Shown here piece after piece: positions 3,423 through 63,814 of a DNA stretch of 64,000 bases. The notes beneath the pieces were generated by a model. It saw nothing but the letters and a program-made list of their open reading frames with translations, was not told where the DNA came from and did no database searches. The first letter of the stretch is position 1. Every line of letters begins with the position of its first letter. The stretch covers positions 3,098-67,097 of the forward strand of contig JAUCBJ010008853.1 of the NCBI GenBank assembly GCA_032718475.1, read 5' to 3'. The position numbers and the translations under genes were made by a program. Origin of the DNA: Nemertoderma westbladi (taxonomy: Eukaryota; Animalia; Xenacoelomorpha).

Positions 3423-3673
3423 TTCTTTTATTCCCAAAACTTCAAATATGTAAAATAATTGAAGGCAGCGTGGCCCTGGCTGATAATTTATGGGAATAAG
3501 CGTCATGTATGGCAGACAAATCCTTGACCTACACTAATTACATTACTGTGTATCCACTGGAGTCATATTGATGTTATACATACATACCCAATACATTGGC
3601 GCGTAGACACACACACACCCCATACTTACAATTTGATTGTTAATATTTATAATCCATACATATGGAACAACTG

Positions 3674-4894
3674 TGTTCGCGCTTTCAGACCTTTGGCAGT
3701 TTAACCCACCAAATTAAGATGTCTTCCAGATATTAAATCGGTTTTTAGTCTATGACAAGTATTTGATTCACTACACTAGTCGAAACCAATCTGTGCGCGA
3801 TCATTCACCCGCTGGATATTCCCGGGAGATTGGGTTCGACGGTTTAATTTTATTGCTATGTAAGCCTAATGTATTATTCGACTGACAGTATTATATAATC
3901 TCTGACAATATTATTCACCTTCGGGAATATTAACAGTTCCTTTAGGACGTGGCGCTTTATCTATATAAACAGAGTTATGACTTAAACTACTCACAACGAT
4001 ATGGCTTAATTATAATTCACATATATGGCGCATTCTTTAGGAATGCTTCTTTAACAGACTCACTCATACACAATGCTGCACAATACTGCACACTAATCTG
4101 CCGATCTTCACTGATTTTAGTCACATATAAAAGGAACACAGACTGACTCATGTAGGGTCTATCAAATAACATTAGATTCACTTCAAACCACTTTAACATA
4201 AGTCACAATCGTTTATCTGTAACCTTTCTCTCTTACCTTCGGTACATCAAGAATATTGGGTTTCGGGGTTATTTCTCGTTATTCCAATATAATAATTCAT
4301 CAACCATATTATGAAGAACTGACAGTAAATAGCAGTATAAAACAACAACTGAACACTGATTGTTATGAGTTTGCAATGTTTCAGCAGTCAGTATGTATGA
4401 TCAGTTAGCAGTGATTCCATGAGTTTGATCGGTATGTCAGTTAAAGGATATATGCTCTTATAATTAAACCTACTAGTGTAAGACTAAAAACTGAAAACAC
4501 GGAGGTGCCAAAAGCCGGTTCTTAGGCTCTGGGCAAAAACATAACACTGAACTACTGAGTTTCTGTATATACCTTCAACACAGAGACAACAAACGCTCTG
4601 ATTGGTCAACCTGAACAACGAGAGAACAGAGAAACAAAGAAACGTCGACGTGGCAATATCAGCTGCTAGCCGTCGTCATGGTAGCGACACTGTTTTCAAG
4701 AGTATCGAGCTTTTACGTCACGGAATTACGGATTATGTCCTCTAAAGTACAAATACAGAAGAAATAGCTTTTATGTCCGCTAAAACACCAGTACAGCAAG
4801 GACACGGCCTTTTTATGCCTGGTAAACCAACTACAGAGTATTTTACGGGAAAAATAAGGAAAAATAACCGGACAATTCAGCAAAAGCTTTTACA
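3674..4894 (-). repeat. 3' LTR of element 1
   Basis: Near-identical to 14208-15428; only two substitutions spotted by eye. Confidence 0.97.
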
Positions 4895-4902
4895 CCGCTC
4901 CC
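4895..4902 (-). promoter_or_regulatory. Polypurine tract of element 1
   Basis: Minus strand reads GGGAGCGG immediately before TGTAAAAG of the 3' LTR. Confidence 0.7.
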
Positions 4903-5039
4903 AGAAAATGGGATTTTCAGTCTATAAAATATAAAAATCACAGTTTCTAAAACATAAAGATACTCTAAACAGTTAGTCTTTCTTACGCAGACGGCGTTTA
5001 CGCAGTTTTTTGAGGCTAGCAAGAGTCTTTTTCTCTTTG

Positions 5040-6259
5040 GGGGGAGCCACTTTACTAGGAGGGCCATAACTCCTGGGTGAAGGGTGCAATATGATTGCAT
5101 CAGAAGGTGTAGGATTGTGGTCGGGGTATACGCCGTTTCGATATGCTTCTCCTCGAGCTGATTTTCCTCCGCTCGTAGCTGGATACGTTCATCCAAAAAC
5201 TCTCGCAGAGAATGGGGTTGTCTAAGTGCGATATCTTCTTAGAGATTCTGGATTTCACAATCGAACTGAGATAAAGACAATTCGTTTATCGCTTGGACTT
5301 GCTGTTATAACTTACGTTTATCTGAACAAACGTAGGTTTCCTTTCTGATCTTTGTAGAATAGCGTTTAACTCGTTTGGTACAACGTTCTCCGCCACTCTG
5401 GTGACAGGTTATATCGTGTCAAGCCGGGACGATGGTAAGGGTTAAACGGCGATATTAAATGTCCGCGTCACAATCCGGCTAGGTAAGATAGGCGGCTAGC
5501 TAGAAATCACTGTCGGAGTGTTACCGATTAATTGTTAGGGTAGCACTAGATCTTTGAACAGTGAATACAGTCCGCGAGGATCCGCGACATCACCAGGATC
5601 GCAGGTCTGAGGTCCAACTAAGGAATGAGGAGGTTTGACCGAGTATTCCGGGACTCTGATCGTAGGTTTACTCCAGGATCGTTCGAGCCGAGTGAGCATA
5701 GGTGATACGTCAACAAGTTTCGGTTTACGTGGATGTTTATGTCTTTCCGTTTATTAGTTGGGTCTAGGGCGTTTATCGTAATAATACCAAAGACGCACGT
5801 CTGGTAGGGTAAACGCGGGTGATATTTGTTTGTTGTTACAATGCTTCTATCAAGAATTCCAAATATACGTTGGAGTTACCGCGTCCATTTGTTTCTTTAG
5901 TGTCTTTTCTTTCGAGTCGATTTCGAATAGAATTTTCGCATTCGAATTTCAGTTTATGGTTCCGACTCCGCTGGGCAGGATATATAGTCGACATAGTCCG
6001 TATTGTGTAAATCGATAGGATGACCAGTAGTTAAGAAGCCCATATACGTACCATTACGCTGCGTATATCGAGCAGCGAATTTTCTATAGTCCAACTCACG
6101 CGTGAGCTGCTCTTGGGACATTGGCGGTTCGATATAACGACCATCGTCCTCCGCAGCAGTTGGACTAACGTCGCCGCGTATTAAGCTATCAACAAACGCT
6201 TGTAAAAGTAGAGTATATCGCTCCCCGATACCAAGACCATCTTCTATCAACTCCGTCAT
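5040..6259 (-). pseudogene. Possible decayed accessory ORF in the 3' region of element 1
   Basis: Protein-like ORF pieces 5954-6259 and 4843-5196 on the element strand, in sequence of higher GC than the flanking UTR. No recognisable domain. Confidence 0.35.
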
Positions 6260-7917
6260 ATCTGCTATATATGAGTTTATCCATATTATAATGAGTTTAT
6301 ATTCAGGCTAGCGAGCGTCGCTGCCTACTCCAATTAACCCCCGGACAGTACGAGATCCTCAGCGCCGATGTGTCGTCGCCGCTGTACTTTCGCCAACGAC
6401 GTAGCCGCACAACGACAACGACAACCGACACAAGTCACTCGACTGTCCGTCCCAAAGACTTAGATGTACTTCAGGTTTTCCTTGGAGAGTTAGGTTACTT
6501 TTACGATTGCGACTAGCTACTGTAAACACACCTTAGCAGTAACATTCACCTATAAACTCACAAATACCACACACACAACTTGTCACAAATTACACACATT
6601 CGGGCCATTTGTCCGTTAGTCAATGCCTTCCAGAATGTCACTGTATTATTATGTATCCTTGGATACTAGTAGTGCGCTATTTATTCCCTATGCTATTCAA
6701 TGGGACAAGCTTTCTATTGTTCTTTTAACTCAATTCTAATTCTAGCGTGGTTGTTGCTATGGTGACATTATGCAAAGCTAGCGGTAGAATTAGGGTGATT
6801 CCAATGCATACAGATCTGGGATGTTATTTAATAGTAATTCTTTAATAGTCAATGTCCTGTTTTATACATGACTTTAAGAATTTTATCGGCTATTAACTAT
6901 GTTTGGGAGACTTTCGTACACGTCATACGCATAATAAGATAAATCTCCGCTCCCTTGATCTATTAATTAATGGAATTTTGGGAACTGTTATAAATTGCGT
7001 AAAATGGCAATTTATTAAATTCATTAAAAGGCATGAATTTAAATTTATTCCCTGAAATTTTATTATTTGATAATTAAATGGACATATTTTGATTCTAGAA
7101 CATGTCTAGGGGCACAAGATCCTTAATTCTAAGAAATTGTCTCTTTAAGAATATCGGTAAATGCTACGATATCTTAATTGACTAGAATTGTTGAAGGATC
7201 TGAATTTTACAGATTTTGACTTATTTGATTTGTAAATATTAACTAATTAATATTTGAGATGGGCACCGATTTATTCCAGAACTTGTCTGGGGACGTTAAC
7301 CACTGATTCTAGAATTTGTCTTTCAAGTATATCGGTGGGTGCCGCGATATCTTAATCGACTAGAATTACAGATGGTCAAAGGGTTTAACAGATTTATTTT
7401 GCGTTATACGCTACTGTTAAAGGGACATCACGCTACTATATGTATTATTTAATATACGGTATGAGAGCAATATCGCACGAAGCAATGTCAGTGTGAAGAG
7501 GCAAGTCGTTTCCAAGGTCTACCCAGAGCTTGGTTTAGCCGAGACACGAGGATCTGAACTTTGCATTCCTAATACTCTGCCTACCAATAATACTTAAATA
7601 TAGTAGTGGCTTTATTGTACTTTAATAAGTACGGACATTTCATCTTACTGTAGTCACGTATTTATAATATGATACGGACAGTAAGGAAAGAGGAAAAGAA
7701 TTATTTCTTGCCGTCGCATTAAATATAATATATACGTAATTAAGTAATAAACGCGAATATATATTGCACTAATCTACTAAATAATCGCTAAAATAACATT
7801 CTACTGAATAAAATTAAAGAAAACGATTATAATAAAATTACATAGTAATACATACAGAAATATAAAAATAATAAAATAATATAAAATAATAGAGTCACAC
7901 ACCCACTCCATATGTTG

Positions 7918-10900
7918 TTACGTTATGGAGTCCCTAGATGTTTGAAGGATTAGGGAGGTGGTCGTGGGAAGAGAATCTTGCCTTCCACAGTTTCCGGAGA
8001 GTCCTCCATTCCCTTCCGATAAACACAAACGACCGACTGGGTGATTGAGTCGCTGCATCCTGAATACAATTCCAGGTTTCCTCTTCGTCCTGGAATAGTG
8101 ACGATAGAAACATCGCTCAAAGTATATGACGGCGTCACAAAGCCGATTCCAGGAGCTATAGTGGTCCGTCGCTCTCTGCAGGAGAGGTGAGAGTCCCTGC
8201 GAGACGTCTGATGTTCCAGAGCTCCAATCGCTCTCTCTGATCTTCATGAAGGATCCACTCGCGGTGGGGAGGCCCAGATCCACGGCGTCGTCCCTGGCAA
8301 CATGTAATACCGACAGATCTATCCCGGGTTCAAATAACTCCGATCCACCCGTCCGGGTTTCAGGTTCGACTTTCTCCGCTCCCTTGGCTGGTCTAATCTC
8401 AGTCGGAGTAAGATGGGGAGGCCATTCATTCTCCTTACTCAGGAAGTCGGGTTCACCTAACCGGTCTATAGTATCTGTCAGTTCTTGAGGAGTTGCTCCT
8501 CTGGAAGCGATGTCCGTTGGATTAAACTTCTTGGGGCAATATCTCCATTGATCTACATTGGAGCTAAGATTGTCATTATCTGAGGAGTGTGGTGTTCCCT
8601 CAGTTGGGTCGTCTCCCTCACTAGTATCGTCTTCCCATTCACTCACCTGGCAGACACGATCTTGAAGCAGTCTTTCCCTGAGCGTTCTACGGGAAGGTCC
8701 AGTAAGGTACCAACCTACTCTAGTTCTTACCGCATAGGTCTGTAGTGGCTGCGGTTGAGCAGGTCGTTTCTCTAATGTCTCCAGCGCCTCATGCGCGTTT
8801 TGGCCGATGAGTATTTGCACTCCAGGATAATCAGTCTGGAATCGAGGTATGTTAAGATGTTGTATGCTCTCATCCTCGTCCCAATTATAAAGGTCTGCTT
8901 GAGTAGTAGCGAAGTTCTTTATAGCCACCATTTTCACTGACCTTATGCTGTGTTCTCCTAGTTCGTCTTGTGGGGTGGACAACGCGCCTACATAATAATC
9001 AGCAGCTGTTATTGTAGATTTCCAAACTTGCATAATGCCAGACATGTTGAGCTTAGTTTGGAACTTGGGCTGTCCAGCAAATATATCTTCGGCTAGCTCT
9101 TTATCGATGAATGTTCCTGTGCTGCCGGAGTCCAGGAGGGCGTTCACTACATAACTCCGTTTAGGTCCGTGCACCCTTACCTGCACCACAGGAAACTCTC
9201 GGATCCCTATATTGGAAGTTGGCGCTTTCCAAGATGGTTGTTGATCGGAAGTAGTTAAGGTAAGGTCGCTGTCTGTGTCTTTCTCATGTACGAGTGCTCG
9301 ATACACTGCGGTGGTGTTTATTAGGTAACAGGATTCGTTTTGGTCGGAGAACTCGTCCGTATAGAATCCTTCCATCTCAGATTGATCAGTGTCGTTCACA
9401 TCACTGAATTGGACATGTAGTTCGGACTCACTTACCTGACTCGGGCTGTTTCGTTCGAATTCCGTGTGCAACAAGATATGATGTTTTGCGCCGCACTTTG
9501 CACACCTTGCGTCGGAGTTACAGGTTCGCCGTTGGTGTCCTCGTCTGAGGCAATTATAACACAACCGCTTATCCCACATGACTTCACGTCTATCCTCGAG
9601 TGATTTCCTCAGGAATTTATCACACGCATTTAAACGGTGGGGCCCGTCGCACAGCACACATTTCGGCTTGATGTTACTTACTTTAACCTGTGCTATGTGG
9701 TGCACACTTGTTCTTTCCTCGGGCTTTCTCACCTGAATTCTTTTAGGAGACGTAGGAAGGGTTTTTTGTACCGGTTCCCTTCTGTCATTGGGTCGAGACT
9801 CGGATTTACTTACCTGATCTTTAGGCAATTTATTGACATAATAAGATCTGTCAGTGTCTTTCCCGCTGTCCTCTCCTTGAGAAGTTTGGCTTTCACCGTC
9901 GTCGGTATAACATACTGGTGTTACCCTTCTCCTAGAAACGGGTTTCTCACTTACCTTGTTTTCCAATGTCTTCTCTCTGGACTGCCTTAGGAGCTGTAAT
10001 TTCACTTCTCTATCTAAGAATGACATGAGATCAGTCATGGTAGGGTCTCGTCGTTGTTGTTCCATCATATATAACACCTTCTTGTCCCAGCGTGTACCTA
10101 CTCCACCCTTGGGCAGAGTAGATGCTAAGGCTCCTACAACCATAGAATTCTGGTATTCATGAGACTTACCTAACCAATCTAGTTGTCTACAGATCTCCTG
10201 AATCTCATCGGAAAACTCTATAATCCCGCTGCTAAGAAACTTTCGGGGCGCCATTAATTTCGCATATAAATACCTAGCTATGTTAGTCCTATTACCATAC
10301 CTGATGTTTAGTGTATCCCAAACTTGTCTTAATCCGTCTGGATGTCCAATAAACTTTAACGCCATTAACTTGGGAGATCCTTCCAAGCACTCGATGAGGT
10401 ATCTCAGTTTTTCTCCATTAGATAGTACAGAGTTCTGTATGTTATCTTTGTAATATTCATTAAAAGGTAACCATTTCATCTCATCTCCATTGAACTTGAC
10501 GATCTCTCCCACCTTTACCGCTTGCCGGGCTTCGGTTCTAGCCATTTGACGCGTAAAACTTTCTTGGGCCATCGTGCTATTTAATATCGAGTTATCGGTA
10601 TATAAATTTCTCGGATTATGATCAGTTCTATATGGAATATCATTATCCACAGGTCTATAATTACCCTTAATAGGGTTCACTATAGGAGTTTCTACTTCGC
10701 TAGCAGTATAAATGCGTGTAGGTTCCACACCTTGCGCATGAGATACTTCAGACCTAACGGGTTGACACATTGTTACAGGGGGTTGTGGTATACCCTTTTG
10801 TAAATTTACTAATTTATCGCGTTCTAGCGCGATACTTTGCTGCACTTCTTGCAACTTTAGCCTACTTTCCCTCACTGTTCCCTTTAAATGTTGGACAGTC

Positions 10901-12024
10901 CCTTCCAACTCTCGGACCTGTTGGGAGGAGCGTATCCGATTCTCCTTCATCTCTCCGAGGAGAATATCCATCCCCCGCCGTCTCTCGTCTACCCAATCAA
11001 CCGCCGAAACGGGATCCGCCAACGTCGTAGCGGGCAGACGAGGGACAACGGGCGACAAATTTGGAATATTTCGCTCGGGGTCCAGGACCTGAACTGTCTC
11101 CTGGGCAGTTCTACGGGGCACAGGTAGCTTAGTGCTATGCAGAGGGAATTTATAGGTAGCTTCAGGGAGCACAGGTGTATCTATTACCAAAGGGGTGATT
11201 TCAAGAACAGGCCTACTTATTTCAGGCTCATCTACTATAGTAGGGAGTCTTTCTATTGTAATTATTTGGTCTGTTGGTTCTGTACTCTCTAAGTTGGTGT
11301 TATTTAGTTGCCTTCTAACAGCTGGAGGCAAATCAGGCAATTTCTGACGGTGGAATGTTCTTTTACGTCTACTTAGACGAGATCTATTTCCCTTGCCTTC
11401 AGTATCGGTGGTATCGCCTTCCTCAGATGATGTATATCCCTGTCGTTTGGGAGTAGATCGATTCATCATCTGCATATTACTAGCTGTTAACTGTTTATTT
11501 ATGCAGTCTTGATTCTCCTGAATGTATTCCAATTCTAGTTGGGTGGTTTCTTCAGTCGCTCTCCGTTCGGCTTCTGCCACTGCCTCTGCGGCCCTTCTCT
11601 CAGCCTCGGCCACCCTTCTTTCAGCTTCGGCCGCTGCCGCTGCCGCCCTTGCCTTTGCCGCTGCCGCCTTTCTTTCCACTTCGGCCGCTGCCATGGCTGC
11701 TGCTACTGCCGCTGCCTTTCTGTCTTCTATAAGTTTTTTCTTTACTTGCTCTTCTTGGACTCTAGTGATGCGGAGGAGTTCATCAAATTTAGCTTGGTTC
11801 GCAGCTAACATTTCCGCATCGATGGCATCCAATACAAGCTTGGTTCCTTCACTATTAGGGCTAAGCCCCTCCAGCCTTCTCCTCAACTCGTCATCACCTA
11901 AAAAACGTTGATAGTCTGACAGATAGATGTCAATGGCATCTCTCTTATGCGGCTTCTCTGCTGTCACTTCGCTCTCGGTTGTATCTAGTAGACTGTCTGA
12001 CAGGTTCTGCTTTGCGTCAGACAT
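7918..12024 (-). CDS. gag: BEL/Pao Gag-protease polyprotein (1368 aa) with RT, RNase H and integrase core deleted
   Basis: Coiled coil, DUF1759-like capsid (FNGDEMKW..F, EKLRYL, RYGN), three zinc knuckles, protease LLDSGS, then only post-RNase H (QWRYCP..NPTDIASRG) and integrase-tail (HPVGRLCLSEG) remnants. Confidence 0.93.
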   Translation of the reverse strand: MSDAKQNLSDSLLDTTESEVTAEKPHKRDAIDIYLSDYQRFLGDDELRRRLEGLSPNSEGTKLVLDAIDAEMLAANQAKFDELLRITRVQEEQVKKKLIEDRKAAAVAAAMAAAEVERKAAAAKARAAAAAAEAERRVAEAERRAAEAVAEAERRATEETTQLELEYIQENQDCINKQLTASNMQMMNRSTPKRQGYTSSEEGDTTDTEGKGNRSRLSRRKRTFHRQKLPDLPPAVRRQLNNTNLESTEPTDQIITIERLPTIVDEPEISRPVLEITPLVIDTPVLPEATYKFPLHSTKLPVPRRTAQETVQVLDPERNIPNLSPVVPRLPATTLADPVSAVDWVDERRRGMDILLGEMKENRIRSSQQVRELEGTVQHLKGTVRESRLKLQEVQQSIALERDKLVNLQKGIPQPPVTMCQPVRSEVSHAQGVEPTRIYTASEVETPIVNPIKGNYRPVDNDIPYRTDHNPRNLYTDNSILNSTMAQESFTRQMARTEARQAVKVGEIVKFNGDEMKWLPFNEYYKDNIQNSVLSNGEKLRYLIECLEGSPKLMALKFIGHPDGLRQVWDTLNIRYGNRTNIARYLYAKLMAPRKFLSSGIIEFSDEIQEICRQLDWLGKSHEYQNSMVVGALASTLPKGGVGTRWDKKVLYMMEQQRRDPTMTDLMSFLDREVKLQLLRQSREKTLENKVSEKPVSRRRVTPVCYTDDGESQTSQGEDSGKDTDRSYYVNKLPKDQVSKSESRPNDRREPVQKTLPTSPKRIQVRKPEERTSVHHIAQVKVSNIKPKCVLCDGPHRLNACDKFLRKSLEDRREVMWDKRLCYNCLRRGHQRRTCNSDARCAKCGAKHHILLHTEFERNSPSQVSESELHVQFSDVNDTDQSEMEGFYTDEFSDQNESCYLINTTAVYRALVHEKDTDSDLTLTTSDQQPSWKAPTSNIGIREFPVVQVRVHGPKRSYVVNALLDSGSTGTFIDKELAEDIFAGQPKFQTKLNMSGIMQVWKSTITAADYYVGALSTPQDELGEHSIRSVKMVAIKNFATTQADLYNWDEDESIQHLNIPRFQTDYPGVQILIGQNAHEALETLEKRPAQPQPLQTYAVRTRVGWYLTGPSRRTLRERLLQDRVCQVSEWEDDTSEGDDPTEGTPHSSDNDNLSSNVDQWRYCPKKFNPTDIASRGATPQELTDTIDRLGEPDFLSKENEWPPHLTPTEIRPAKGAEKVEPETRTGGSELFEPGIDLSVLHVARDDAVDLGLPTASGSFMKIRESDWSSGTSDVSQGLSPLLQRATDHYSSWNRLCDAVIYFERCFYRHYSRTKRKPGIVFRMQRLNHPVGRLCLSEGNGGLSGNCGRQDSLPTTTSLILQTSRDSIT

Positions 12025-13385
12025 GTTTGTTTATACAGTTGAATGCCTACTGCTATATTACAGTTAAAGCAAGTCTAGCAATTCAGTATCACTGTTAGCC
12101 TAATAATTAATTACCGATACTGCTACTCAATGTAGCGTGATATATATAATATATTAGAATACCGGTATACTTATAGTATATATAACTATATAAGTATTAT
12201 TACAGACTAGGTTTATCACAGAATACCGGTATAATTTTAGCACAAATATATATAAATATATAATAGGCCTATCTGGAATACCGGTATACAGCTTACAGTT
12301 TGTAGGATATATAATTCTGAAATAGAATTAATTACACGTACCGGTGTAATTTCAGCCTAGATTTATAGAAATAAAGATAATAGGCCTATCGTAAATACCG
12401 GTATATCAATTATTTTAAAATAACTGAATTTCTGAATTTCAAGGGTTACTTGGTTACTTTACTTACTTTATTAACGTTATTTGAGCAGTAATCCAACTGA
12501 TATTGAGACCTAATTGTTGTATGGCAGGCCTACTATTTATAAATCGTTTGAGTTGATTTATAATATATATATACCCGTTTTAATGGGTTTTGTCAATGTT
12601 GAAATAAATGTTATTATTTCTGGGGAGTAATCACTACACAAAGCGGTGCGCTTTCAGTGAAGTGTTACTTATAGGACACTAAAACAAATAATTCTAATTT
12701 ACCTAAGTTACTTAATACTACAAATTACGTACGATTCGGGTTGAGATTACAATCTCTAAATAAACACAAAAATTTTACAAAAAACACAAAATACGAATTT
12801 TTAGGGTAATTTTACAAGAAGTCTACAAACCAGCCTAACAAAGGGTTAGATAACCGGTTATTACAACGGACAGGGTACTACGGTATTTGAAATAATAAGT
12901 AGTAGTAAATACACTGCGTTGTCTAGATAGGAAAATGCCACCGCCTGACGACCTATAGCCGTATCGCTATAGGTTCTACGTTATGTATCACGGAGTGTTC
13001 CTACCTAGAAGTTAATAGAGCTAATCGAATGTGCCTATCAACCACTTTACAACACAAATATAATGCCTACACTAATTATTTTCGGAAAGCACTGTACACT
13101 AAACCCTAAATTAGGTACGAGTACTTGTACAACAGATAATCAGTAGTTAAATATACTTGAACAGCTAAAAGAACCACGGCATCTGCTGGAGTGACCGATG
13201 CACAAAATCACCAGTCTTTACCTACGCCGAGCAGCCCGTGTAGTACCGGGGTTAATTTAACTATAGCGGTATGTATAACAAACACAATTACTGTAGGAGC
13301 AAACTTGGGGAATGAATGTTGCGGATAATCGCATAAACTCTGAATAATAAATATTACGCTACGCGTACAAACTACTCAAACAAAA

Positions 13386-13915
13386 TACAGACCGAACACT
13401 GACAGACTACTATCAAGCCTAAACAAACTACGGTATATGCAGACTCCGAAATGATTAGGGAGTATGCGCTCTAACCCAGTAGTGCGACTTATTCTTTAGT
13501 TGGGGGTTTACCTTACAGCGTTCGCTGCCCCTACTGCCTAACCGTACTTAATCGGACAGATGATCTACACACGCGGCAATCCGTTCAGACCTAATAACAG
13601 CCAGACAACTATCCAGCCTACAAATTATCTAAATAAAATTATACGCCACCCGTACAGACTTACACAAACAAAGTACAGACTAAACGATGGCAGACCACTC
13701 TCAAGCCTAAATAAACTACAGGACATGCAGACTCCGAAATGATTAGGGAGTATGCGCTCTAACCCAGTAGTGCGACTTATTCTTTAGTTGGGGGTTTACC
13801 TTACAGCGTTCGCTGCCCCTACTGCCTAATCGTACTTAATCGGACAGATGATCTACACACACTGCAATTCGTTTGGACTTAACAGCAATCAGACAACAGC
13901 TCAGCCTACAAATCG
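13386..13915. repeat. 288-bp tandem duplication in the 5' leader of element 1
   Basis: Core 13439-13572 nearly identical to 13727-13860; flanks more diverged. Confidence 0.9.
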
Positions 13916-14207
13916 TCTGCACAATCTGATCAGGTTTACACGCCTTCTGTTCAATACTGGCCTACAAATAAATAAAGCTGACAGAAATAGGCCTAAGTAA
14001 AAATCCCAATAAAAACCAGGCGTCCCCGATTAATTATTAAGACCTACCGGCATATATAATCAAATCGAATAATACTGCTGTACTTATACGGAAGTACCGG
14101 TTAGGACAGTTAGGCCTACTGACCTACAGATGGACCGTTCAGGTTTACCGGTTGACCGGTACTTTCAACTTTATTGCTTACCGCAATAAAGAAGCTATAT
14201 CCTTTAA

Positions 14208-15428
14208 TGTTGGCGCTTTCAGACCTTTGGCAGTTTAACCCACCAAATTAAGATGTCTTCCAGATATTAAATCGGTTTTTAGTCTATGACAAGTATTTGA
14301 TTCACTACACTAGTCGAAACCAATCTGTGCGCGATCATTCACCCGCTGGATATTCCCGGGAGATTGGGTTCGACGGTTTAATTTTATTGCTATGTAAGCC
14401 TAATGTATTATTCGACTGACAGTATTATATAATCTCTGACAATATTATTCACCTTCGGGAATATTAACAGTTCCTTTAGGACGTGGCGCTTTATCTATAT
14501 AAACAGAGTTATGACTTAAACTACTCACAACGATATGGCTTAATTATAATTCACATATATGGCGCATTCTTTAGGAATGCTTCTTTAACAGACTCACTCA
14601 TACACAATGCTGCACAATACTGCACACTAATCTGCCGATCTTCACTGATTTTAGTCACATATAAAAGGAACACAGACTGACTCATGTAGGGTCTATCAAA
14701 TAACATTAGATTCACTTCAAACCACTTTAACATAAGTCACAATCGTTTATCTGTAACCTTTCTCTCTTACCTTCGGTACATCAAGAATATTGGGTTTCGG
14801 GGTTATTTCTCGTTATTCCAATATAATAATTCATCAACCATATTATGAAGAACTGACAGTAAATAGCAGTATAAAACAACAACTGAACACTGATTGTTAT
14901 GAGATTGCAATGTTTCAGCAGTCAGTATGTATGATCAGTTAGCAGTGATTCCATGAGTTTGATCGGTATGTCAGTTAAAGGATATATGCTCTTATAATTA
15001 AACCTACTAGTGTAAGACTAAAAACTGAAAACACGGAGGTGCCAAAAGCCGGTTCTTAGGCTCTGGGCAAAAACATAACACTGAACTACTGAGTTTCTGT
15101 ATATACCTTCAACACAGAGACAACAAACGCTCTGATTGGTCAACCTGAACAACGAGAGAACAGAGAAACAAAGAAACGTCGACGTGGCAATATCAGCTGC
15201 TAGCCGTCGTCATGGTAGCGACACTGTTTTCAAGAGTATCGAGCTTTTACGTCACGGAATTACGGATTATGTCCTCTAAAGTACAAATACAGAAGAAATA
15301 GCTTTTATGTCCGCTAAAACACCAGTACAGCAAGGACACGGCCTTTTTATGCCTGGTAAACCAACTACAGAGTATTTTACGGGAAAAATAAGGAAAAATA
15401 ACCGGACAATTCAGCAAAAGCTTTTACA
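14208..15428 (-). repeat. 5' LTR of element 1
   Basis: Duplicate of 3674-4894. Candidate minus-strand CCAAT (~15135), TATA-like (~15100) and AATAAA (~14385). Confidence 0.97.
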
Positions 15429-15539
15429 AACTGAGATACTAGTTAAAATTAAATTAAAACAATAATGTGACCATATAATTAGATAAAATTTAATTAGTTC
15501 CGTAACTTATGTAAAAAAGGATATTCCGTAATGATTAAA

Positions 15540-20560: not shown

Positions 20561-20791
20561 CACAGCATTCTTGTAATTTAAAAGCATGCCAATTGTCAAT
20601 TATCTTATCCGTATGTGCCTTGTTCTTTTGTTACTGTAACTATAATTTGCTCCTCTCCTTTCTGTTACAGCGACCTCATCGTTTATTATAATTGAGTCGC
20701 TTGAAATTTATAATAGAGAAGAGCGTGATATACATTAAACTACTGCCACCTGTATTTAATTTATCGATTAATACTTAATTAAGATTTCATA

Positions 20792-22324
20792 ATGGATCAA
20801 CATACTAATTTATTGAAAGAGAAATCTTCTGGTGCCGGTATAATTATAAAGAGCGAACCAACCGACTATATAATCCTAAACAAAGAACCAACAGACTTTA
20901 TAATTATAAAGAAAGAACCAACAGACTTTATAATTATAAAGAGAGAACCAACAGACTGTATGATTATAAAAAGAGAACCAGCAGACTCTACCCCCTATTC
21001 TCTTGATGTTAAACAAGAGAACTGCGTTCACGGATCATCTCCCATCGAAGAGCACAACAATTTGTTCGGTAGAGTAGATGTTGTCCCTTTACTAGATGAC
21101 GAAGATATTTCTTATGAACCATCTGGAGATTCTTTTATTGTTGAAAAACGGGAAAACGACAGCCCAGAGTGTTCTTATGGTAGGCCTATTGAAACTGAAG
21201 GTACAGAAGCGACAATCAGTTGTGCAACAACAGAGTCAGGTAGTTCTAATGAAACGGTTGGGGAATTGGTATCTTCTTCAGATACCAGTTCCTGTTTGCG
21301 TTGCAATGAATTATTTAATAACAAAGGAGATTTAGAGAGACATATAGAATCCGTTCATAAAGACGTCAAGAATAAGTATAAATGCGAGTATTGTGAGAAA
21401 CAGTTTAAATGTAAGCTTGGTGTAAAGAAGCATGTTAACTCTATCCATAAAGGTATAAAATATAATTGCAGTTATTGTAATAAAGAATTCTGCGTGCAAA
21501 TTAATCTGAACACCCATGTGAACTACTTTCATAAAGATATCAAGTACAACTGTCTCGATTGTGGAAAATCATTGAGTACAAAAGTCGAACTAAAACGACA
21601 TGTCGACTCTATACATAAAGGTATCAAATATAAGTGCGGTTATTGTCATAAAGAATTCAGTCAGCAAGGGAATCTATACACCCATGTGAACTACTTTCAT
21701 AAAGATATCAAGTACAACTGTTTTGATTGTGGAAAATCATTTGCTAGAAAATACGTACTAAAACGACATGTCGACTCTATACATAAAGGTATCAAATATA
21801 AGTGCGGTTATTGTAATAAAGAATTCAGCCTACAAAGGAGTCTAAACACCCACGTTAACTTTGTCCACAAAGGTATCATCAAGTACAACTGCTTCGATTG
21901 TGGAAAATCATTTGCTACAAAAGCCGAACTAAAACGACATGTCGACTCTATACACTCTATACGACATAAAGATATCAAATATAAGTGCGGTTATTGTCAT
22001 AAAGAATTCAGTCAGCAAGGGAATCTATACACCCATGTGAACTACTTTCATAAAGATATCAAGTACAACTGTTCTGATTGTGGAAAATCATTTGCTACAA
22101 AAGCCAAACTAAAACGACATGTCGACTCAATGCATAAAGATATCAAATATAAGTGCGGTTATTGTAATAAAGAATTATGTCATCAAATGAATCTAAACAC
22201 CCATGTGAACTACTTTCATAAAGATATCAAGTACAACTGTTCTGATTGTGGAAAATCATTTGCTACAAAAGCCAAACTAAAACGACATGTCGACTCTATA
22301 CATAAAGAAAGATATCAAACTTAA
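20792..22324 (+). CDS. C2H2 zinc-finger protein, 12 fingers, single coding exon
   Basis: 510-aa ORF with 12 CxxC...HxxxxH fingers, N-terminal IIIKxEPTD repeats, and an upstream splice acceptor at 20670 (pyrimidine tract + TTACAG). Confidence 0.92.
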   Translation: MDQHTNLLKEKSSGAGIIIKSEPTDYIILNKEPTDFIIIKKEPTDFIIIKREPTDCMIIKREPADSTPYSLDVKQENCVHGSSPIEEHNNLFGRVDVVPLLDDEDISYEPSGDSFIVEKRENDSPECSYGRPIETEGTEATISCATTESGSSNETVGELVSSSDTSSCLRCNELFNNKGDLERHIESVHKDVKNKYKCEYCEKQFKCKLGVKKHVNSIHKGIKYNCSYCNKEFCVQINLNTHVNYFHKDIKYNCLDCGKSLSTKVELKRHVDSIHKGIKYKCGYCHKEFSQQGNLYTHVNYFHKDIKYNCFDCGKSFARKYVLKRHVDSIHKGIKYKCGYCNKEFSLQRSLNTHVNFVHKGIIKYNCFDCGKSFATKAELKRHVDSIHSIRHKDIKYKCGYCHKEFSQQGNLYTHVNYFHKDIKYNCSDCGKSFATKAKLKRHVDSMHKDIKYKCGYCNKELCHQMNLNTHVNYFHKDIKYNCSDCGKSFATKAKLKRHVDSIHKERYQT

Positions 22325-25997: not shown

Positions 25998-28900
25998 TTA
26001 AAAGGGTTTAGCATTGTCACCAATGTCCGCAGCAGGATCCGGAGTAGGGAACTTATCACCTCTCTTGGAGTCACCACTGTCATTGCCTTCAAGAAGGCAA
26101 AGCCTCTGGATAGGGCGTTGGTAGTGGCCTTTCGCCGTCCGTATCGTCACTGTCCTCGCAAGTCCGTCCTTGCTTGGGGTTATTTCCATGACTCGCGCCA
26201 CAGGCCAGTGGACGCGGTCTTTAAGGTCTTCCTTAACAAGCACCATGTCGCCAACTGCGACGTTCCGGTAGGTGTTATTCCATTTCCTTCCTCCTGGTCC
26301 GGAGGGTTATGAGGTACTCTTGGGCCCAGATTCTCCACCAATGCGCTGCCAGCGCTTGGGCCTTTTTCCAGTTGGTGTGTCTCGCAATATCATTGGGATC
26401 TGGGAACATTGCCTCTGGAAGAATGTTGGTCTTGGGTCTTCCGAGTAGATGTTTGGGTGTAAGAGGCTCTAGGTCTGTAGGGTCATCGTGGATGGGTACG
26501 ATTTGCCGGTTATTTAGGGTGGCCGTGATCTCGCAGAATTGTAGTGCGAAGGGTGTCATGGGTTACCCGGGTATCTCCTAATGCGACGCACATGGATCGT
26601 TTCACCAAGTCGATGAGTTTCTCCCATACCCCGCTCGTATGGGGTGCCAAGGGCGTTTGGAAGTGCCATTGTATATGGTGTTCCTTCCAGACTTGGGATG
26701 CGGTTTCGTCGGTGAACCATCCTTCGATAGCCTCTCTGAGTTCCCTTTCTCCTCCCACGAAGTTTGTTCCATTATCGGAGTACATATGCCATTGTTCACC
26801 ACGATCCGACGCAGAGCGTTGATAAAGGCGTGCTGCGTGAGGTGTACTATGAGGTCTAGGTAAATCACCCTTGACCTAAGGCATGTGAAGGTGGCTCCCC
26901 AGCATTTGATGTTGGATCGTCGCTCGATGACTGTAAATGGTCCGAAACAGTCTACTCCGGTTACATAGAACGGCGGTGAATCGGATTGCAGCCGTGTAGC
27001 CGGTAGGTCGGCCATTCTTTGGGTGAGCGGTGGCGCTAGGTATCGTCTGCAAGGGAAACATCGTTTTAAGACTTTCCAGATCAGTGGCTGGATGTAGGTG
27101 ATCCAATATCTTTGCCGGATGTTGGCCATAATCCAGTTCTGGCCCGCGTGATGGTTTTCTTCGTGACACTGCTGGATTAATAGCTTAGCTAGTGTTGATG
27201 TATTGAGGTGAGGCTAGTGTTGAGGTATTTGACTTCATATTCAACCGGGGCGTTCGCCATCCGGGTATTTAGTCGGATCAGTCCATCTTCCCCCATCATG
27301 GGTCTCAACCGGTAGACTGGGCTGTCAGGTTTCAAAGTCCTGCCCACGCTGAGCTGTTCCCATTCATCGGGGAATCTTTCTTTCTGTACGTATCTCACAA
27401 TACATTTCTCCGCAATAATGAGTTCTTGTATACTTTGTCGAACTATCGGTTTATTATCCTTCCACCGCAAGAAGTTACAAAGAGTCACGACGTGGTGGAT
27501 AAGACGTCTCATCGAGGAGGTTCACTCTATCAATAGTTGTAAGGACGCGGCTGATTGCGCAGTGGTCGCAACATTATAATGCCTGCCCGAGTCCTTTGCA
27601 GGCTCGGTCAGACAACTATAGATTTCCACGGTGGCGCTTCCATGGACTTTGCGAATCTCCTTGTCGTCTTCCGAATATTTCCCGCTATCTAGCTCAGGAT
27701 CGAATCGGGTGCTCCAGGTTAGTTGTGGTTGCTTTAAGAACCCCGGGCCTGTGAGCCAAAGTTTACTCTTACCAAGCTGTCGTGGGGTGGCGCCTCTGGT
27801 CAATAAGTCCGCTGGGTTTTCTTTTCCGTTCACGTGGTGCCATTGTTCTCGGTTGGTACATTGTTTTATTTCCGTGGCTCGGTTCGCTACGAACGTGGTG
27901 TGTCGCCATGATGGTGAGTGGAGGTAGTAAAGCACAATACTCGAATCAACCCAGAAATGCTGCGATTCAATGGGGATTCTTAGGTTCCCGCATGATCATG
28001 CGGTTCTGCCTCACTGCCCAGACTGCGGCCTGCAGCTCGTGTCTCGGGATTGTTGCCACAAATTCCCCAGATACCGTCTTGGCTTTGGAGAATAAGAAGC
28101 TCGTATCACCGTTTCCATCCTGACTTAATCTTCTTAGGAAGGTAACTACGCCGATTCCGGTATTTGATGCATCCGAGAAAGTATGGAGCTGGAATATATC
28201 GGTGGGTAGTTTGTCGAGGAAGAATGGTCGAGGGATCCGCATGAGGTGTAGCTGTTCGAGTTGTTCCGCCCACTTCTTCCATTTGGCACTGAGGTGTGGG
28301 GGGAGTTCTTCGTCCCATCCCAGTCCTTCTATCCACATTTCTTTGATCAAATTCATTCCGGCCAATGTTACTGGGGATATGAAGTTTAATGGATCAAATA
28401 TGGCGCTCTTTACAGATAAACATCCCCTTTTTGTCATTGGTTTGGGCAGGGGGTTATGTTTGAAGATGAACTGATCCAGTTCTTTGTCCCATTCGATACC
28501 GAGTATGCGGTGATCTACACCCTCGGCATACATTTTGTTGTCGTCTAGCCTAATTTCTTCCGGGAACCTTTCCATAAGTTCCTTATCGTGGGATCTAATC
28601 TTCACAAGAGGGAAACCTCCTCTCTTTAAACATTCCACCATTCCCATAGCCAGCTGATATGCCTCGTCGACGTTCTCAGCACCAGCGCATCCGTCATCTA
28701 CGTAGAAACATCGTCGGATGGTCTCTATGACTGTCGGAGGGAACTCATTTTCACACATAGTCGCTGTTTTCTTCAACATGTCGCTACATGCAACCGCCGA
28801 GTCCTTAGCGCCGAAGATTCTGACAATCATGCGCATTACGTCCACATCCTTCAAGGTGAGTTGGTTTATCTCTTGTGGAGTCAATGTTTAATCTGTCCAC

Positions 28901-30130
28901 AATATACGTAGGCAATCTGAGTCTCTTGGTAGCATTCGGACCTGGTGGAACATCGCTTTGATGCCGCATGTGAAGGCTATTTTGTTTTCTCGGAACCTGA
29001 TCAATACGCCGATCAGTGTACTGTAGATGTTGGGTCCGGTGTAAAGTTGGCTGTTTAAGGATTCGCCATGATACATAGCCACAGCGTCATTCACTACCCG
29101 GATTTTACCGCCCTTCCGGGCTTCCATCACGTAGTGGGTCGGGAGATAATATGTCCGTCTAGTCCCCTGCAGTTCATTCAGGGGCACCATTTCCGCCAAT
29201 CCATCTTCTAAATAACCTTTAACCACATTATTATATTTCTCTTTTATCTCAGGTAGCTCGTTTAACCGGCGTAAGATACCTTTGAGCCTCCTTAGGGCCA
29301 TGCTGGCGTTATTCGCCATCGGTCTATCTGGGTCTTTCCAAAGCATGGGCGAGCACCAATGTCCGTCTTTGAATGTTGCCTGGTCGAGAACATCCATACA
29401 ATATTGATCTTCTTCGGACGGATTCTCGTCCTTCTCAGCGAATTCTAGAGTCTCTAAGTTGAAATATTTTGTCATTTCCCGTTGGGTTTTTTCAGTTTCC
29501 AAGAATAAATCCTCGTCCAGGTCGGTTGCTGAACAGTAACCCACAGATATTGCGTTCTCTTTGATCTGGCATTTTGGAAGATATCTATATGTGTCGGTAG
29601 TCTCTTCTTTGATGCCACAGAGTGTCCATCCCATGATGGTGCGCTCCGCATAGAAACCATCATCCGGTTTTACAGATCGGGCTATGTCTCCGGTCGGTAT
29701 ATGTAATTCCGGTGTATCGAGCCCGATTAATAGCGTGATTCTGTTCAAGTCCAACGGTGGGCATCGTAGATCCACATCTTCCCGATCTAACTGTATGAGG
29801 GGTGCGTATTCGGATGATTGTCGGAATCGCACTCTGAGATCGGTATGCACCAGAGCATTTTTAATCGTTAGTTTGACCGCTTCGTAGCCTTTCATAACTC
29901 CTTCCATCCTGAGTTGTACCTCCCCGGACTCCACTTCTTTATGGTCGGTTATAGTCTGTATGGGCCGCCTGCAGGGTTCATAGTCTAGGCCTAGTTGTTC
30001 GAGAAAATCCCTGTCTGTGATCGTTCCGTCCGACCCATTGTCCTGTCCAGGAACGCGAGTGTTGTTAAGGATTTTCCGACCCCTTGGATTCTTACCAGGA
30101 TCACTTTGGTAAAGACCATATAACGGCGGT
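25998..30130 (-). pseudogene. pol: pol of element 2 (protease, RT, RNase H, integrase)
   Basis: AFLD protease; IKAMFHQV and FYVDDG RT; HTFSDAS RNase H; GVDCFGP, YSDNGTNF, GVWEKL integrase; YQRPIQRLCLLE tail. Many frameshifts. Confidence 0.92.
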
Positions 30131-33100
30131 TTATTAAATTGACTGTAGCTGATATGCCGGTCACATGTGATACGTCAGCGGTGGTCTTGAACGGATTGGT
30201 TTCCCTCCGCTGAATCGTCCAGGTACCTTTGGAGACGTGATTCGTTTCTCCTCTCTGTTTGGATTCGATATGGAACGGTAGGGTGGTGAAATCGAAATTT
30301 GCGGGAATGTGGAGGAGTGTATGATGTCGTAGGTCGTTACAAACCGCACAGCATGACCTTTGGTCGCAATCCCGTACGTAGTGACCTGTTCCAAGACACC
30401 GGAAGCATCCTCGGTGTTTCATTATTGCCTCGAAGCGTGGAACGAGTTCGGCGAACTAGAATTTTCTGCAGAATTCCACCTTGAGTTTCTCCCCACAGAA
30501 GAGACATAGAAGGGAGGTTGTTGTGCCTTCCCTCTCGGGTGCCCAATTTGCTAGATAGCATGCCCATTCCTCAGCCGATGTTGGTTCGTCATAGTCCTCA
30601 TCGTCGGAATCCTCGGCCATGGTGATGGCCATCGTACTCCCCGGAGGGGGGCGGAATCTCGGTTTCGGAGTGGGTGCCCTGCTCCTAGAGTTGTTCTCTA
30701 TTCCGTCTAACTTGGAGAGACTTTGCTTGGAGAACATCGAGTCGTTCATGGCTTCGGAGATATCATCTAGGAATGCCGACATTTCGAGGAAATTAGGATC
30801 CCAATCCGGGTGTCTGCATCTGAGATCGACACATTTATACACCCATTTGCTTTGCAACCATCCGGGGAATTTCCGGGCAATCTGACGGAGGTTTAGGATG
30901 TTGTTTACTTGCTCCTCCTTGTTCAATGGGTTTAAAGTGTAGTAGGCGTCTTTCATTGAGTCCGAAAACTCTTGGATATTCGGTGGGTCCCCTAGAGATC
31001 CAGCGTCCTGTATCCGTTTTTCAAGCGTCTTATTGATTATAGTTCCGATGTTACCATATCTCTTATCTAGAGTTTTCCACGCATCATAGTACGCTTCGTG
31101 AGATCCTCCTTCGAAACATTTTCTTTACTGGGTTTTCACATGGTATTTTCTGAACAAAATCGAGTATCGTTTCCGAAAGACAAATTGTCCAAGTCAAAAT
31201 CCAGTATGTATATTGATAATGTCAGATTTACCACGACAAAACCCAGTAAACAGAGTTACTGGGTATACAGCAGTTTGAGATACTGGGTTTTGACGTGGGA
31301 TTTCCCGAATGCAGATATTATGCCAAACCAAAACCCAGTAACTCCGGCAACGCAACAGACGTAGACAAATAATTAAATGTTCCAGAATATTATATTCTAG
31401 AATGTTGCCTCTTTGTTTTCGCTAACCGTTGGCGAAGGAAAGAGTTTTAACTGGGTTTTTGGCGAAGGGAATTGTCAGTTACTTGGTTTTGGCATGGGAA
31501 AAGTAACTGATTGGAAAAGTTAAATGTTAGTTTACTGGGTTTTGGTGTGGGAAAATTAGTTACTGTGTTTTGAAATGGAAATCATGACGTTACTGGGTAT
31601 TGATTGTTCTCTTTTCTACCATACCAAATCCGTGTAAGTCGATTCATAAGAAAAGTAAGGAATAAATTTAAAAAAAGTTTTTGACTTTGCACTAATATAT
31701 GTACAATTTGTAAAGGTACACAAAATTATAACTCATCAAATTAAATTTCAACCAAGTGCCAGCTGTTTAAAGTCCAAAAATTTTAAACGCGATTATCTCG
31801 AAAAGTCAAAAAATGTACCGTACTTACTGGGTTTAGGTTTGGAGCTGCCGAGTATTAGGAGAGTAGCCCCCCCCCCCCCCCCCCCCCCGGACAGTAGCCC
31901 CCGGGATTTTATATCACAGAAATTCCAGAATATAATATTTTTTTAATGTTTTTTAGTATTGGGTGAATATTCTAGAACAGTAGTAGATATGTTTTTGTAT
32001 GATAGCTACCCGTTCCCGTTCCCGTTCTACCAAAGCTGACTGGAATATCGTCAGTACCGGTACTGTGGGCCTTGGTTCTACACAGGAATACAGAATAGTG
32101 ATCAATAAAGCGGGAAATTTGAAGTTATTTTTATGTTAAGTTAATTTGCAATTTCAAAACATTGAAACTACTGTATAATTTTCCGATTTTCAGACAAAAA
32201 TAGGATGAAACTTTAAATATCTCTTTGTGGTCCTATGGCAATCTGAACCGATTATTACGTTACGGTATTTTCGGTAATACACAATTATGTTTCGGAATTC
32301 AGTAACGTAACGTAATTTGGAAATTATTCCGTAATGTAATATCGTAACGTAAAACATCCTTGGTAATGAGGGAAGCAACTCTTTATCTCATTTTAACTTG
32401 TGTGGTTCCTTTTTCCCCTTTATTTTAACTTTTGTGGTTACCTTTCCCCTTTTGGGTTCCTTTTTTGTGAAATTTGCCGCTGGGAGGGGTGTAACTACTG
32501 AAACCACTAAACACTACTTCCTATCAGCACTTCTTAAACTATCAAACTAAAGATTGCACATATGTACATGTACCGGTACCAAGGCCGAATAGAGGTCATG
32601 CAGCCAGAATTCAGCTTTTTAACTAGAGAGGGTTGAAGTGTTTTTAAGTGAAATACGATAGCAAAGGTAAACAAAACTGGTTTTCTAACGTTTTCGAGGG
32701 TGCTGAATCCGTTTTTACAACATTAGAAGCGTAAATAAATAAATTTCTTTATGTACTCCCATTTTTTTATTGTTAATTTTATAGTTCCTCTGTATTTCTC
32801 GTTTATTTGAATGTTTAATGTAAAATTGAAAAAAATGTTTAATGTAAAATCTTTCAAAAAAGATTCGGATTTAATTCTTAAATGTTATTAAATTAATAAT
32901 TAAATTAAAGCGAAATTAATGTTTACGAGGTTAGCTTTGTAATCTTCCTAATCTTCTGTTTATCGGGAGATCGAAAACTGGTTATGCGATTTAGTAGTGT
33001 GTTCAATTACACCATTTTAGCTTTGTGTGAAAATCCCTTTGGCAGTGAGTTGTCAGCTGAATTGAGTCTATTAATATCAAACCTCCCGATCTACATGGTA

Positions 33101-48861: not shown

Positions 48862-49442
48862 TGTGACGGGATCCGAGAATCCCGATTTATCCGGTGGTTA
48901 TCTTATCTACGCGTCCCCGCCGTGTGTGTGTGAAAAAGAGTTCTTGAGTTGTTGACTGATCGGTATGTATAAATATAGGGTATAATACAATCGAATAAAG
49001 TGTAACACAGTTGATTGATGATAACTAAAGTGTACCGATAAAATAGCTGAAAGATGGTGGTGGCAGTAGACGGTGATAAGAGTTCCCGTTCTGCCCTAAC
49101 TAACTGACTAACTAAAGTGAATGAAATGACACAGCAACTGGTAATATATTGCACTGGTTGGCCGTATTACATTACTCAGTGGATGCCTGCCCCCCATTGG
49201 CTAATAACCCAATTCTCGCCCTCCCATCTCTCTGGGAGTGTTTCCCCCTGCTGCTATCACTATCTCCCTCCCGGAGGTGTAACCTCTGACCCCCGCTGTG
49301 TGTGTTCCCTTGGGGTTTGTCGCCCCGTTTATTGGGGTGATACGAGGTTGATTGGCAATCAACCTCGTACTCCCAATATTGCTTAAAGCTCCTGTTTGGC
49401 CAACTCTGTGTGGGGTGGTTAGCGGAATTGAATACGCTAACA
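48862..49442 (-). repeat. 3' LTR of element 3 (581 bp)
   Basis: TGTGAC...GCTAACA; PPT GGGGGGAG (minus, 49443-49450); candidate CCAAT (~49198), TATA-like (~49145) and Inr. Confidence 0.9.
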
Positions 49443-49730: not shown

Positions 49731-49789
49731 TTCACTCTTCACTCTTTATTTTATCACGACTTTTAATTCTTTCTTCGTGATCATTGTGG

Positions 49790-61985: not shown

Positions 61986-63814
61986 GCCGGGCTGCCTGCG
62001 CTTGCCGCGTTTATATTAATAGCACCATTACCAGTATTATCTGTTAAATCAATTAAATCCTCCAAATCAATTAAATTATTTTGCACGCCTAAATTAGAAA
62101 CGGGATTATTTTGTTCGTTCGAAATAAGATTATTTGAATTATTTTGCGTAATTATATTATTTGAATTATTTTGTAAATTCAGATTTAGATTATTTGAATT
62201 ATTCCCTACGTTTATATTATGAATGGGTCGGATTTAAATTACTACCATCGGACGAAATGTTATCTCCTGCAATGAAAGTTTGATTAGGGTTATCCACTAC
62301 GGTACTATTAATATTAACGTCCTCTACTGTATTATTATTATTACCCCCCCCCCCCCCCCCCCCCGCCCGCACGGTCACACCAGTCCTGGGTCTGTCGTGC
62401 GGTCCCTGTAAGTGGGGCATTAATAAACGTTTCCCTAACTCCTGGCTCCTCGTAAATACTCGAGCCAGCCTCGCTCTCTGACAGCCCCATCTGCGCCAGT
62501 TCCAGTCTGCGCCTCTGCTTGACTTGATATTGCATAAGCCCCCTCAACCGGGCATGCATATTATCTCGCACACGCTTCCCCGTTGCCTCTCTCTCCCAGT
62601 CCTCCCGCATACTCTGCTCGGCAATTCCGCCTCTCTCGCAACTCTCTCCAGTCGTCTCGCCTCGCGCTCTTTTCGCTCACTCTGCTCTCTCGCCTCACGC
62701 TCTTCACGTCTATTCTGCTCTCTCGCCTCACGCTCTTCTTGCTCCTTCCTTTCTATCCTCCCTATTTCCTCGCACTCCTTAAAACTTCTCGCGACCTTTT
62801 CGGCTCTCTCTCTGTTCTCTCTAGCCAGTTCTTTCTCCTTCTCTATTAACGCACTCTCTTCCTCTAACTGTCTCTCTAATTCTCTCTGGTCTAGCGCCGC
62901 CAGATCGAGCTGGCACGCCAGATCTATTTCCATCACCCGTCTTACTTTCGTGGAGGATGTAGCAGACTTATCGGTCGCGATGGACTCCCTCCGCCTTCCC
63001 GTCCTACTAACTTTCCCCCGCCTCCCGGAATTTTCTCCGACCGACGAGACCGAATCCTCGGGGCTAACCTCGGATTCGCCCTCCTGCGGTCCCCTCCAAC
63101 CCACTAATTTTATTCCCCGGGCATCGACTAAGTATGGCCCTATGTACACTACGCCAGGCTCCATACCCCTACATTCCCATAGTTCAAACAGTTCGCTGGC
63201 AACCCCTCTCGCTCTCTCATCGGCTAGTTCTCCCTGCCCAAAGCGCACTAAGTAATCAAAATGTTTGTTCGACTCACCTAGCCGCTTCTCTAGCTTCACC
63301 TGGTCTATCTTGGCCCCTCCTTTGGCTTCTCTTAGCTGCTTCCGGGTCGCGGCGTAGGCTCGTCGGAGCCGGTCGCTGACCCCGACGTCCTCGTCGCCGA
63401 CGTCTCCTCTATCCCTCCGTGTCCGGCGTCGTACCGGCGGCCCCACCGTCGCCGTTCCGGTGGGCCGTCCGTCGCCCTCGGCCTGTGGCTGGCCGGCGAC
63501 ATCGGCACGTCGACCGCCGCTCGTGTGTCGACTCGTCTCTCCCCTCTCTCGACTCGCTCTCTCGTTGTAGACGGCCCCCCTCCGTTTGGATTGCCGGATC
63601 GCCTATGGTCGACGAATCCGGCGTCGTGGGTCGGTACCGTCGCGTCGCGGCCTCGCGGATCGTTAGGTCGCTGTCCGGGGTCCGCGGCGGTGTCGTCTCT
63701 CCTTCTCGACTCATCTTTTGTCTTTACTTGAGTCGGTGGCTGGCAGTCAGTTCAGGCAATTGATCTTGTCACTACGGATCTTATCACTTAGGGCAGCTGC
63801 TTGGTTCTTATCAC

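Follow-up and report, generated by a model that had tools for sequence, protein, structure and literature searches.

Predicted self-priming of a non-autonomous BEL/Pao retrotransposon of Nemertoderma westbladi and a recurrent LTR self-complement in its relatives

The stretch of Nemertoderma westbladi DNA analysed here (64,000 nucleotides of contig JAUCBJ010008853.1, referred to as the window) carries on its minus strand, at positions 3674-15428, a non-autonomous BEL/Pao LTR retrotransposon that we call element 1. The LTR pair was located as a direct repeat by self-comparison of the window, and its near-identical copies and intact target site duplication (TSD), both described in the original prediction, mark element 1 as a recent insertion. 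Its features are listed below, the pair probabilities being taken from the RNA folds discussed later.

3669..3673 and 15429-15433, strand not applicable: TSD AACTG, flanking both ends of element 1
3674..15428, minus strand: element 1, 11755 bp, with LTR pair, TSD and DUF1759, and no reverse transcriptase, RNase H or integrase by tblastn
3674..4894, minus strand: 3' LTR, 1221 bp, two mismatches relative to the 5' LTR
4895..4902, minus strand: polypurine-tract-like sequence, abutting the 3' LTR
7918..12030, minus strand: 1370-aa ORF encoding Gag (DUF1759, three Cys-His boxes), protease and a short post-RNase H fragment
14146..14161, minus strand: second small hairpin, pair probability 0.8-0.99 in two of three folds
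14169..14191, minus strand: 9-bp hairpin located shortly downstream of the primer-binding position, with a pair probability of 0.97-1.0 in two folds out of three
14196..14207, minus strand: primer-binding position, the first 12 nt of the internal region, with no tRNA-type TGG
14208..15428, minus strand: 5' LTR, 1221 bp, TG...CA
14383..14388, minus strand: AATAAA, candidate poly(A) signal by its sequence
14975..14986, minus strand: predicted self-primer at LTR positions 443-454, exactly complementary to the primer-binding position

Membership of BEL/Pao follows from both ends and content. The ORF matches PF03564 (DUF1759) with an E value of 3.8e-13, three Cys-His boxes and then a protease motif can be read off its translation, and all of its homologues (16/16) carry DUF1759 or Pao peptidase domains and are BEL/Pao polyproteins; the TG...CA LTRs, the 5-bp TSD and the polypurine tract are likewise those expected of the group. 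The BEL-type reverse transcriptase-RNase H-integrase block is missing: using three full-length BEL polyproteins as tblastn queries, none of the three enzymes was found in element 1, and only Gag-protease and one fragment of 42-48 residues matched. Element 1 is a deleted member of the group, and, encoding none of these enzymes, which corrects the original prediction, it must borrow them in trans. Among the homologues returned there was no named reference element of the named BEL/Pao clades (Suzu, Sinbad/Sailor, Dan, Flow, Tas).

The missing enzymes are present, in interrupted form, in a second BEL element of the window, E3, whose relevant parts are the following.

48862-64000, minus strand: E3, with its LTR at 48862-49442 and its 5' LTR cut by the window end
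49073..49081, minus strand: 9-nt complement in the LTR (positions 362-370 of 581)
63806..63814, minus strand: first nine internal nucleotides, abutting the LTR end

BEL elements with interrupted pol were detected by tblastn at ~26100-31100 and ~54800-59000, and the region 26000-35000 holds a third, broken BEL element with no detectable LTR pair. At the 3' end of E3 (49418-50553) there is a tandem pair of units, each made of a 3' UTR, a purine tract and an LTR. Of the two LTRs, the inner, LTR-like one (49726-50267) shares ~77% identity with the outer LTR of E3, has no clear CA end and carries other letters where the primer would lie; many copies share its U3 part, while its downstream half is nearly unique. 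The primer-binding site of this diverged sister LTR was found on no contig of the sequencing runs.

The internal region of element 1 begins at 14207, flush with the LTR end. A tRNA-primed element would have at this place a primer-binding site (PBS) starting with TGG and complementary to the 3' end of a tRNA; element 1 has no TGG within the first 70 nt of its internal region, no tRNA gene was found in the window, and an Rfam search of 13900-15500 for a ribozyme or tRNA-like leader RNA returned no match (0 at E up to 5). As originally predicted, its first 12 nt are instead an exact complement of 14975-14986 in its own LTR, and the predicted self-primer, whose 3' end is 767 nt upstream of the end of the LTR, would pair through that end with the first internal base. 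Element 1 thereby shows the combination expected of a self-primed element, namely no tRNA site, a PBS that matches its own LTR and a primer 3' end that faces the LTR end.

The probability of a chance match, which the original prediction had left to be calculated, is about 3e-4 (3.6e-4 expected matches of the 12-mer in the LTR from base composition, 2.6-5.4e-4 by Markov models of order 1-3). Counting the site itself, three of the 9288 internal positions of element 1 have a complement of at least 12 nt in the LTR; for the remainder of the window, the counts on the two strands are 3 and 6 out of 47975 positions. In the wider search used for the marked-end set of the survey below, 2/200 decoys match the length of element 1's complement. 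The complement is real and not due to chance. It is also of the contiguous type, the best spliced junction for element 1 being only 7 nt long. A hammerhead-like appearance downstream of the primer was dropped, as the core is missing.

The element 1 family is abundant in three DNA runs of the same species (13081 contig pieces in run X1). Measured against their contigs, the G at 14212 is almost private to this copy, and a near-universal family variant at 14182 falls within the loop of the 14169..14191 hairpin. None of the 40 listed family variants (of 125) hits either 12-mer, primer site or complement, an absence that weighs little because the two together make up 24 of 1551 positions and 85 more variants stand outside the list. 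Low-depth contigs that leave out 14051-14207 or 14882-14969 occur in runs X1 and X3; they represent either copies devoid of the primer-binding site or flank artefacts, and the second of these gaps stops 5 nt short of the predicted primer.

Folding of the leader RNA gave a result that depends on where the transcript starts. With an RNA starting at 14986 the primer helix of element 1 forms with a pair probability of 0.74-0.99, but with starts at 15082 or 15428 it is absent from the best fold and the site pairs elsewhere. Both local hairpins proposed downstream of the site were recovered, each in two of the three folds. A second helix of 7 bp (14141-14147 with 14999-15005), also proposed at the outset, appears in none of the three folds, nor in a two-strand cofold; the complement exists but does not rise above chance, since 860 of the 9288 internal positions (~9%) have a complement of at least 7 nt somewhere in the LTR. 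As for the start itself, a CCAAT and TATATA pair near 15100-15139 of the element 1 LTR, recognised from its letters, suggests initiation at a distance of ~100 nt upstream from the primer. A TATAAG at 14991-14996, read in the same way, would place the start downstream of the primer and exclude priming in cis. In the folds, a start at 14986 suits element 1 best, whereas E3 pairs better from an upstream one, and the start site is the weak point of the self-priming reading for element 1. The AATAAA at 14383..14388 lies downstream of the predicted primer, in the position that an R region needs, and may serve as its poly(A) signal.

Several other observations concern the same part of element 1. Its long 5' leader contains two 288-bp copies, 88% identical, at 13339-13913, and its LTR carries on the minus strand, at 14770, a strong donor-like site (AG/GTAAGA) ~200 nt downstream of the primer; this candidate donor, if used, could yield an mRNA that skips the primer-binding site. 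The otherwise unrelated LTRs of element 1 (14958-14969) and E3 (near 48960) have a 12-mer in common, located 5 nt downstream of the primer in the former and ~110 nt in the latter, which may be due to chance.

Other BEL/Pao families were surveyed using 89 loci fetched with an alignment of 40 BEL polyproteins, of which 46 were left unscored as fragments without the region upstream of gag, as near-duplicates or because the gag start was not located. A marked-end set of 16 was formed by the 14 fetched loci whose two LTR copies mark the end of the 5' LTR, together with element 1 and E3. Within this set, the complementarity is kept across sister families with letters that differ between families, each following its own LTR: all 13 elements without a tRNA site have a self-complement of 9-15 nt, as opposed to none of the three with a TGG-type site, which score 4-5, like their decoys. 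The complements lie 0-9 nt from the LTR end, beginning at 0-4 nt and once at 9; decoy medians are 5-8, and 0-9 of 200 decoys are as long, the upper figure being that of E3, where 9/200 decoys reach 9 nt. This part of the survey was not blind, the junction regions having been seen already; for L006 and L046 the LTR end was placed by eye, and both the donor pattern and the maximum offset (9) were chosen only once the sequences had been seen. By-eye LTR ends tried for L023 and L055 were wrong and gave no match, and the ends found for them by the scan described next gave junctions of 12 and 10 nt. Of the shared structure-based mechanism originally put forward, the core inference, a primer taken from the element's own LTR-derived RNA instead of a tRNA, is supported by this recurrence of the complement (13/13 versus 0/3), and the second helix does not stand.

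In a wider scan of the 43 scored loci, every ACA upstream of gag was tried as an LTR end. It gave 26 matches of at least 10 nt, two of them at wrong ends (L008, L088), leaving matches of 10-17 nt at plausible ends in 24/43 loci, 19 spliced and five contiguous; the adjusted p-values per locus are modest (0.016-0.2), as the number of decoys was limited to 120. Among the 17 loci that stay below 10 nt there are three of tRNA type, four matched or half-matched elsewhere (L046 in the marked-end survey; L018, L079 and L062 by eye) and ten without assignment. Judged from these data, the pattern of element 1 is widespread in BEL/Pao. Element 1 itself stands out by its 767-nt loop, far longer than the 44-211 nt of the other elements measured, and by a site that begins with TT. 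By eye and uncounted, most predicted primers end with AC, then C or G (often CG), and most primer sites begin with GT or AT after a spacer of 0-4 nt, from which element 1 departs; the recurrent primer ends could reflect a cut-site preference.

The complement is not always contiguous. It is so in seven of the marked-end elements (element 1, E3, L008, L046, L049, L051, L082), whereas in 6/13 (L006, L013, L067, L068, L077, L083) it exists, at 11-15 nt, only across a GT...AG segment of the LTR. The junction search in the marked-end set required GT and AG only, and yet five of the six real junctions combine a consensus donor with a pyrimidine-rich acceptor, versus 12 of 851 decoy junctions. The wider scan found spliced junctions of 10-17 nt in 19/43 loci, with GTAAGT or GTGAGT as donor in 12/19. 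A primer assembled by splicing is likely in many BEL/Pao families. In L049, the junction is contiguous in the 3' LTR copy, an acceptor precedes the exon-2 part in the 5' copy, and the tree neighbours (95% group) carry the intron, which looks like precise intron loss, in a locus whose LTR copies are 88% identical and whose contig may be a mosaic of copies. On the tree, the spliced and contiguous states need eight changes, meaning that the LTR intron was lost or gained repeatedly.

Trees were built from the RNase H-integrase region by two quick searches without a true root. Loci with a self-complement and loci with a tRNA site fall on opposite sides of one branch. A group with 98% support unites 30 scored metagenome loci and excludes the four tRNA-type loci, with E3, a long branch whose position changed between trees, outside it. 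In the smaller tree, 29 self-complement loci, E3 and P0002, the best match to the element 1 Gag, lie on one side of a branch (86%), a grouping neither shown nor rejected. Element 1 cannot be placed directly, since it has no reverse transcriptase or integrase; its Gag-protease is 20-27% identical to the best loci, with the tRNA-type L036 in the same range.

The reading that we prefer is that element 1, like Tf1, primes reverse transcription in cis with part of its own transcript, and we give it a probability of roughly three in four. Its transcript would start at or upstream of 14986, and the 12 nt would pair with the primer-binding position. RNase H borrowed from an autonomous partner would cut after 14975, freeing a 3' end that faces the LTR end, from which minus-strand DNA would copy the 767 nt of R and U5 and jump to the 3' LTR. 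Finally, plus-strand synthesis would rewrite the primer-binding position as a copy of the primer, and this would account for a match that stays perfect as families diverge. Such copying of the primer into the site by plus-strand synthesis, which keeps the match perfect, is established for tRNA primers. Where the LTR carries an intron, we propose that cleavage would occur 3-8 nt inside exon 2; the unspliced 3' LTR would then serve as the template for the intron, which would thereby be retained. The simplest primer for a site that tracks the family's own LTR and stops at the LTR boundary, does not occur alongside a tRNA site and often exists only as an exon-exon junction is LTR-derived RNA. For the survey as a whole, the best account is probably that a large group of BEL/Pao elements self-primes as Tf1 does and that many families assemble the primer by splicing, element 1 being a contiguous case with an unusually long loop. 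We lean, less firmly, towards a single event in which a large BEL/Pao branch, mostly of aquatic animals, gave up tRNA priming and became self-priming; in most of its families the host spliceosome would build the primer from two LTR exons, reverse transcription would be limited to spliced transcripts and the unspliced 3' LTR would restore the intron. Element 1 and E3 would be intron-less derivatives.

The mechanism has a published precedent, which the original prediction had not recognised. Self-priming is described for Tf1 and Tf2 of Schizosaccharomyces pombe and for Tj1 of S. japonicus; the Tf1 primer is released when RNase H cleaves between bases 11 and 12 (PMC7175516, PMC4600332). Element 1 resembles the Tf1/sushi group, as portrayed there, in lacking a tRNA site, the PBS of that group being complementary to ~11 nt of its own LTR-derived RNA. 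It differs in family, since Tf1/sushi are Ty3/gypsy chromoviruses whereas element 1 has BEL/Pao domains, with a DUF1759 Gag, in place of chromovirus proteins; unlike Tf1, it is non-autonomous and has a loop of 767 nt. The GT-AG-split complement of many BEL/Pao families is another difference, none being described for Tf1 in the available parts of PMC7175516 and PMC4600332. By analogy, element 1 would work like Tf1 without being a member of the Tf1/sushi group. Self-priming was also predicted from LTR/PBS complementarity in Tcn1 chromoviruses and the TAR (Houba, Osr-1) elements of Ty1/copia; these are plant and fungal gypsy or copia elements and not BEL/Pao, and no splice-formed primer appears in the available part of that paper (PMC6317226). 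Hairpin priming is mentioned for chromoviruses in PMC3601003. GalEa copia elements, with their 'conserved hairpin site', and TRIMs of bivalves that have no tRNA site (PMC6934838) are like element 1 in having no canonical PBS and short hairpins at the start of the internal region, but their inverted repeats lie inside the internal region, whereas the decisive match of element 1 is to the LTR. Another comparison comes from the tRNA-primed BEL/Pao loci (L032, L036, L061, L088), which have the same protein families and a short spacer between LTR end and primer site but a TGG-type site, presumably a match to a tRNA 3' end, no self-complement and a position on the other side of the tree split.

Three other explanations have to be weighed against self-priming in cis. 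An LTR-derived primer might act in trans, its source being another genome packaged in the same particle, the transcript of a solo LTR or a small RNA produced by cleavage of such a transcript. The element 1 family is very abundant (13081 contig pieces in run X1), the 767-nt loop and competing folds weaken pairing in cis, and cis and trans are indistinguishable from sequence alone. A trans primer would nevertheless still require a precise 3' end, the precedent of Tf1 is in cis, and E3 has a colinear second helix of 9 bp upstream of its primer (49091-49099 with 63788-63796, pair probability 0.77) that fits a fold-back, even if its flush helix reaches only 0.04-0.28; on balance we consider priming in trans unlikely. 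About as improbable, in our view, is that the pairing is a conserved leader structure, involved in packaging, dimerisation, translation or a splice checkpoint, and that the real primer is something else, for example a half tRNA. Half-tRNA priming is known in copia lineages (PMC6317226), and stable hairpins do follow the element 1 site. A purely structural helix, however, need be neither perfect nor end at the LTR boundary, whereas the observed match varies by family in step with the own LTR and sits at the place required for a primer terminus, its first base being 0-4 nt (in one case 9 nt) away from the end of the LTR; the elements with a tRNA site are precisely those that lack it.

It could finally be argued that the match in element 1 is a coincidence or a local inverted copy confined to one lineage, which would then be primed by another route. 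Element 1 is indeed unusual in its loop length and in its TT start, where most others have GT or AT, and its clade is not fixed, its Gag-protease being no closer to the best loci than 20-27%, a range that includes a tRNA-site locus. Against this stand the ~3e-4 expected at the one predicted position, the 2/200 decoys of the wider search and the same pattern in 12 other elements, and we regard this explanation as very improbable.

Self-priming has already been published for Tf1/sushi, Tcn1 and TAR/Houba, and we found no report of it for BEL/Pao in the texts available. The words primer, PBS, priming and tRNA do not occur in PMC3118150, PMC6238403 or PMC2774666; PMC8556966 has no PBS, primer or priming, PMC554778 uses 'primer' for PCR only, and the available parts of PMC8220671, PMC13524379 and PMC3286476 contain nothing on BEL priming. 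In BEL/Pao, neither self-priming nor a primer formed by splicing is mentioned in the titles and abstract openings covered by the literature searches. The available text of the main surveys of the group that were searched does not address how its members lacking a tRNA site are primed. If the preferred reading is true, self-priming reaches a third LTR superfamily and very many animal genomes, a splice-assembled primer ties host splicing to retroelement replication, and the survival of an LTR intron through RNA-mediated copying is explained. Self-primed BEL/Pao elements would also be beyond the reach of defences based on tRNA fragments. For annotators there is a simple rule to be gained, as LTR ends in these families can be found via the self-complement.

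A scan of viral contigs for BEL relatives gave none. Loci L081-L089 are animal BEL/Pao elements in contigs filed under bacterial genomes, probably through host contamination; one of them, L088, lies in a 1.4-Mb Wolbachia-labelled record and has intact 195-bp LTRs and a tRNA-type site. Elsewhere in the window, an ORF at 20783-22324 encodes a C2H2 zinc-finger array with 168-bp repeats, and 39100-43700 is occupied by 16-bp tandem arrays with a GC-rich interruption near 40000-42000.
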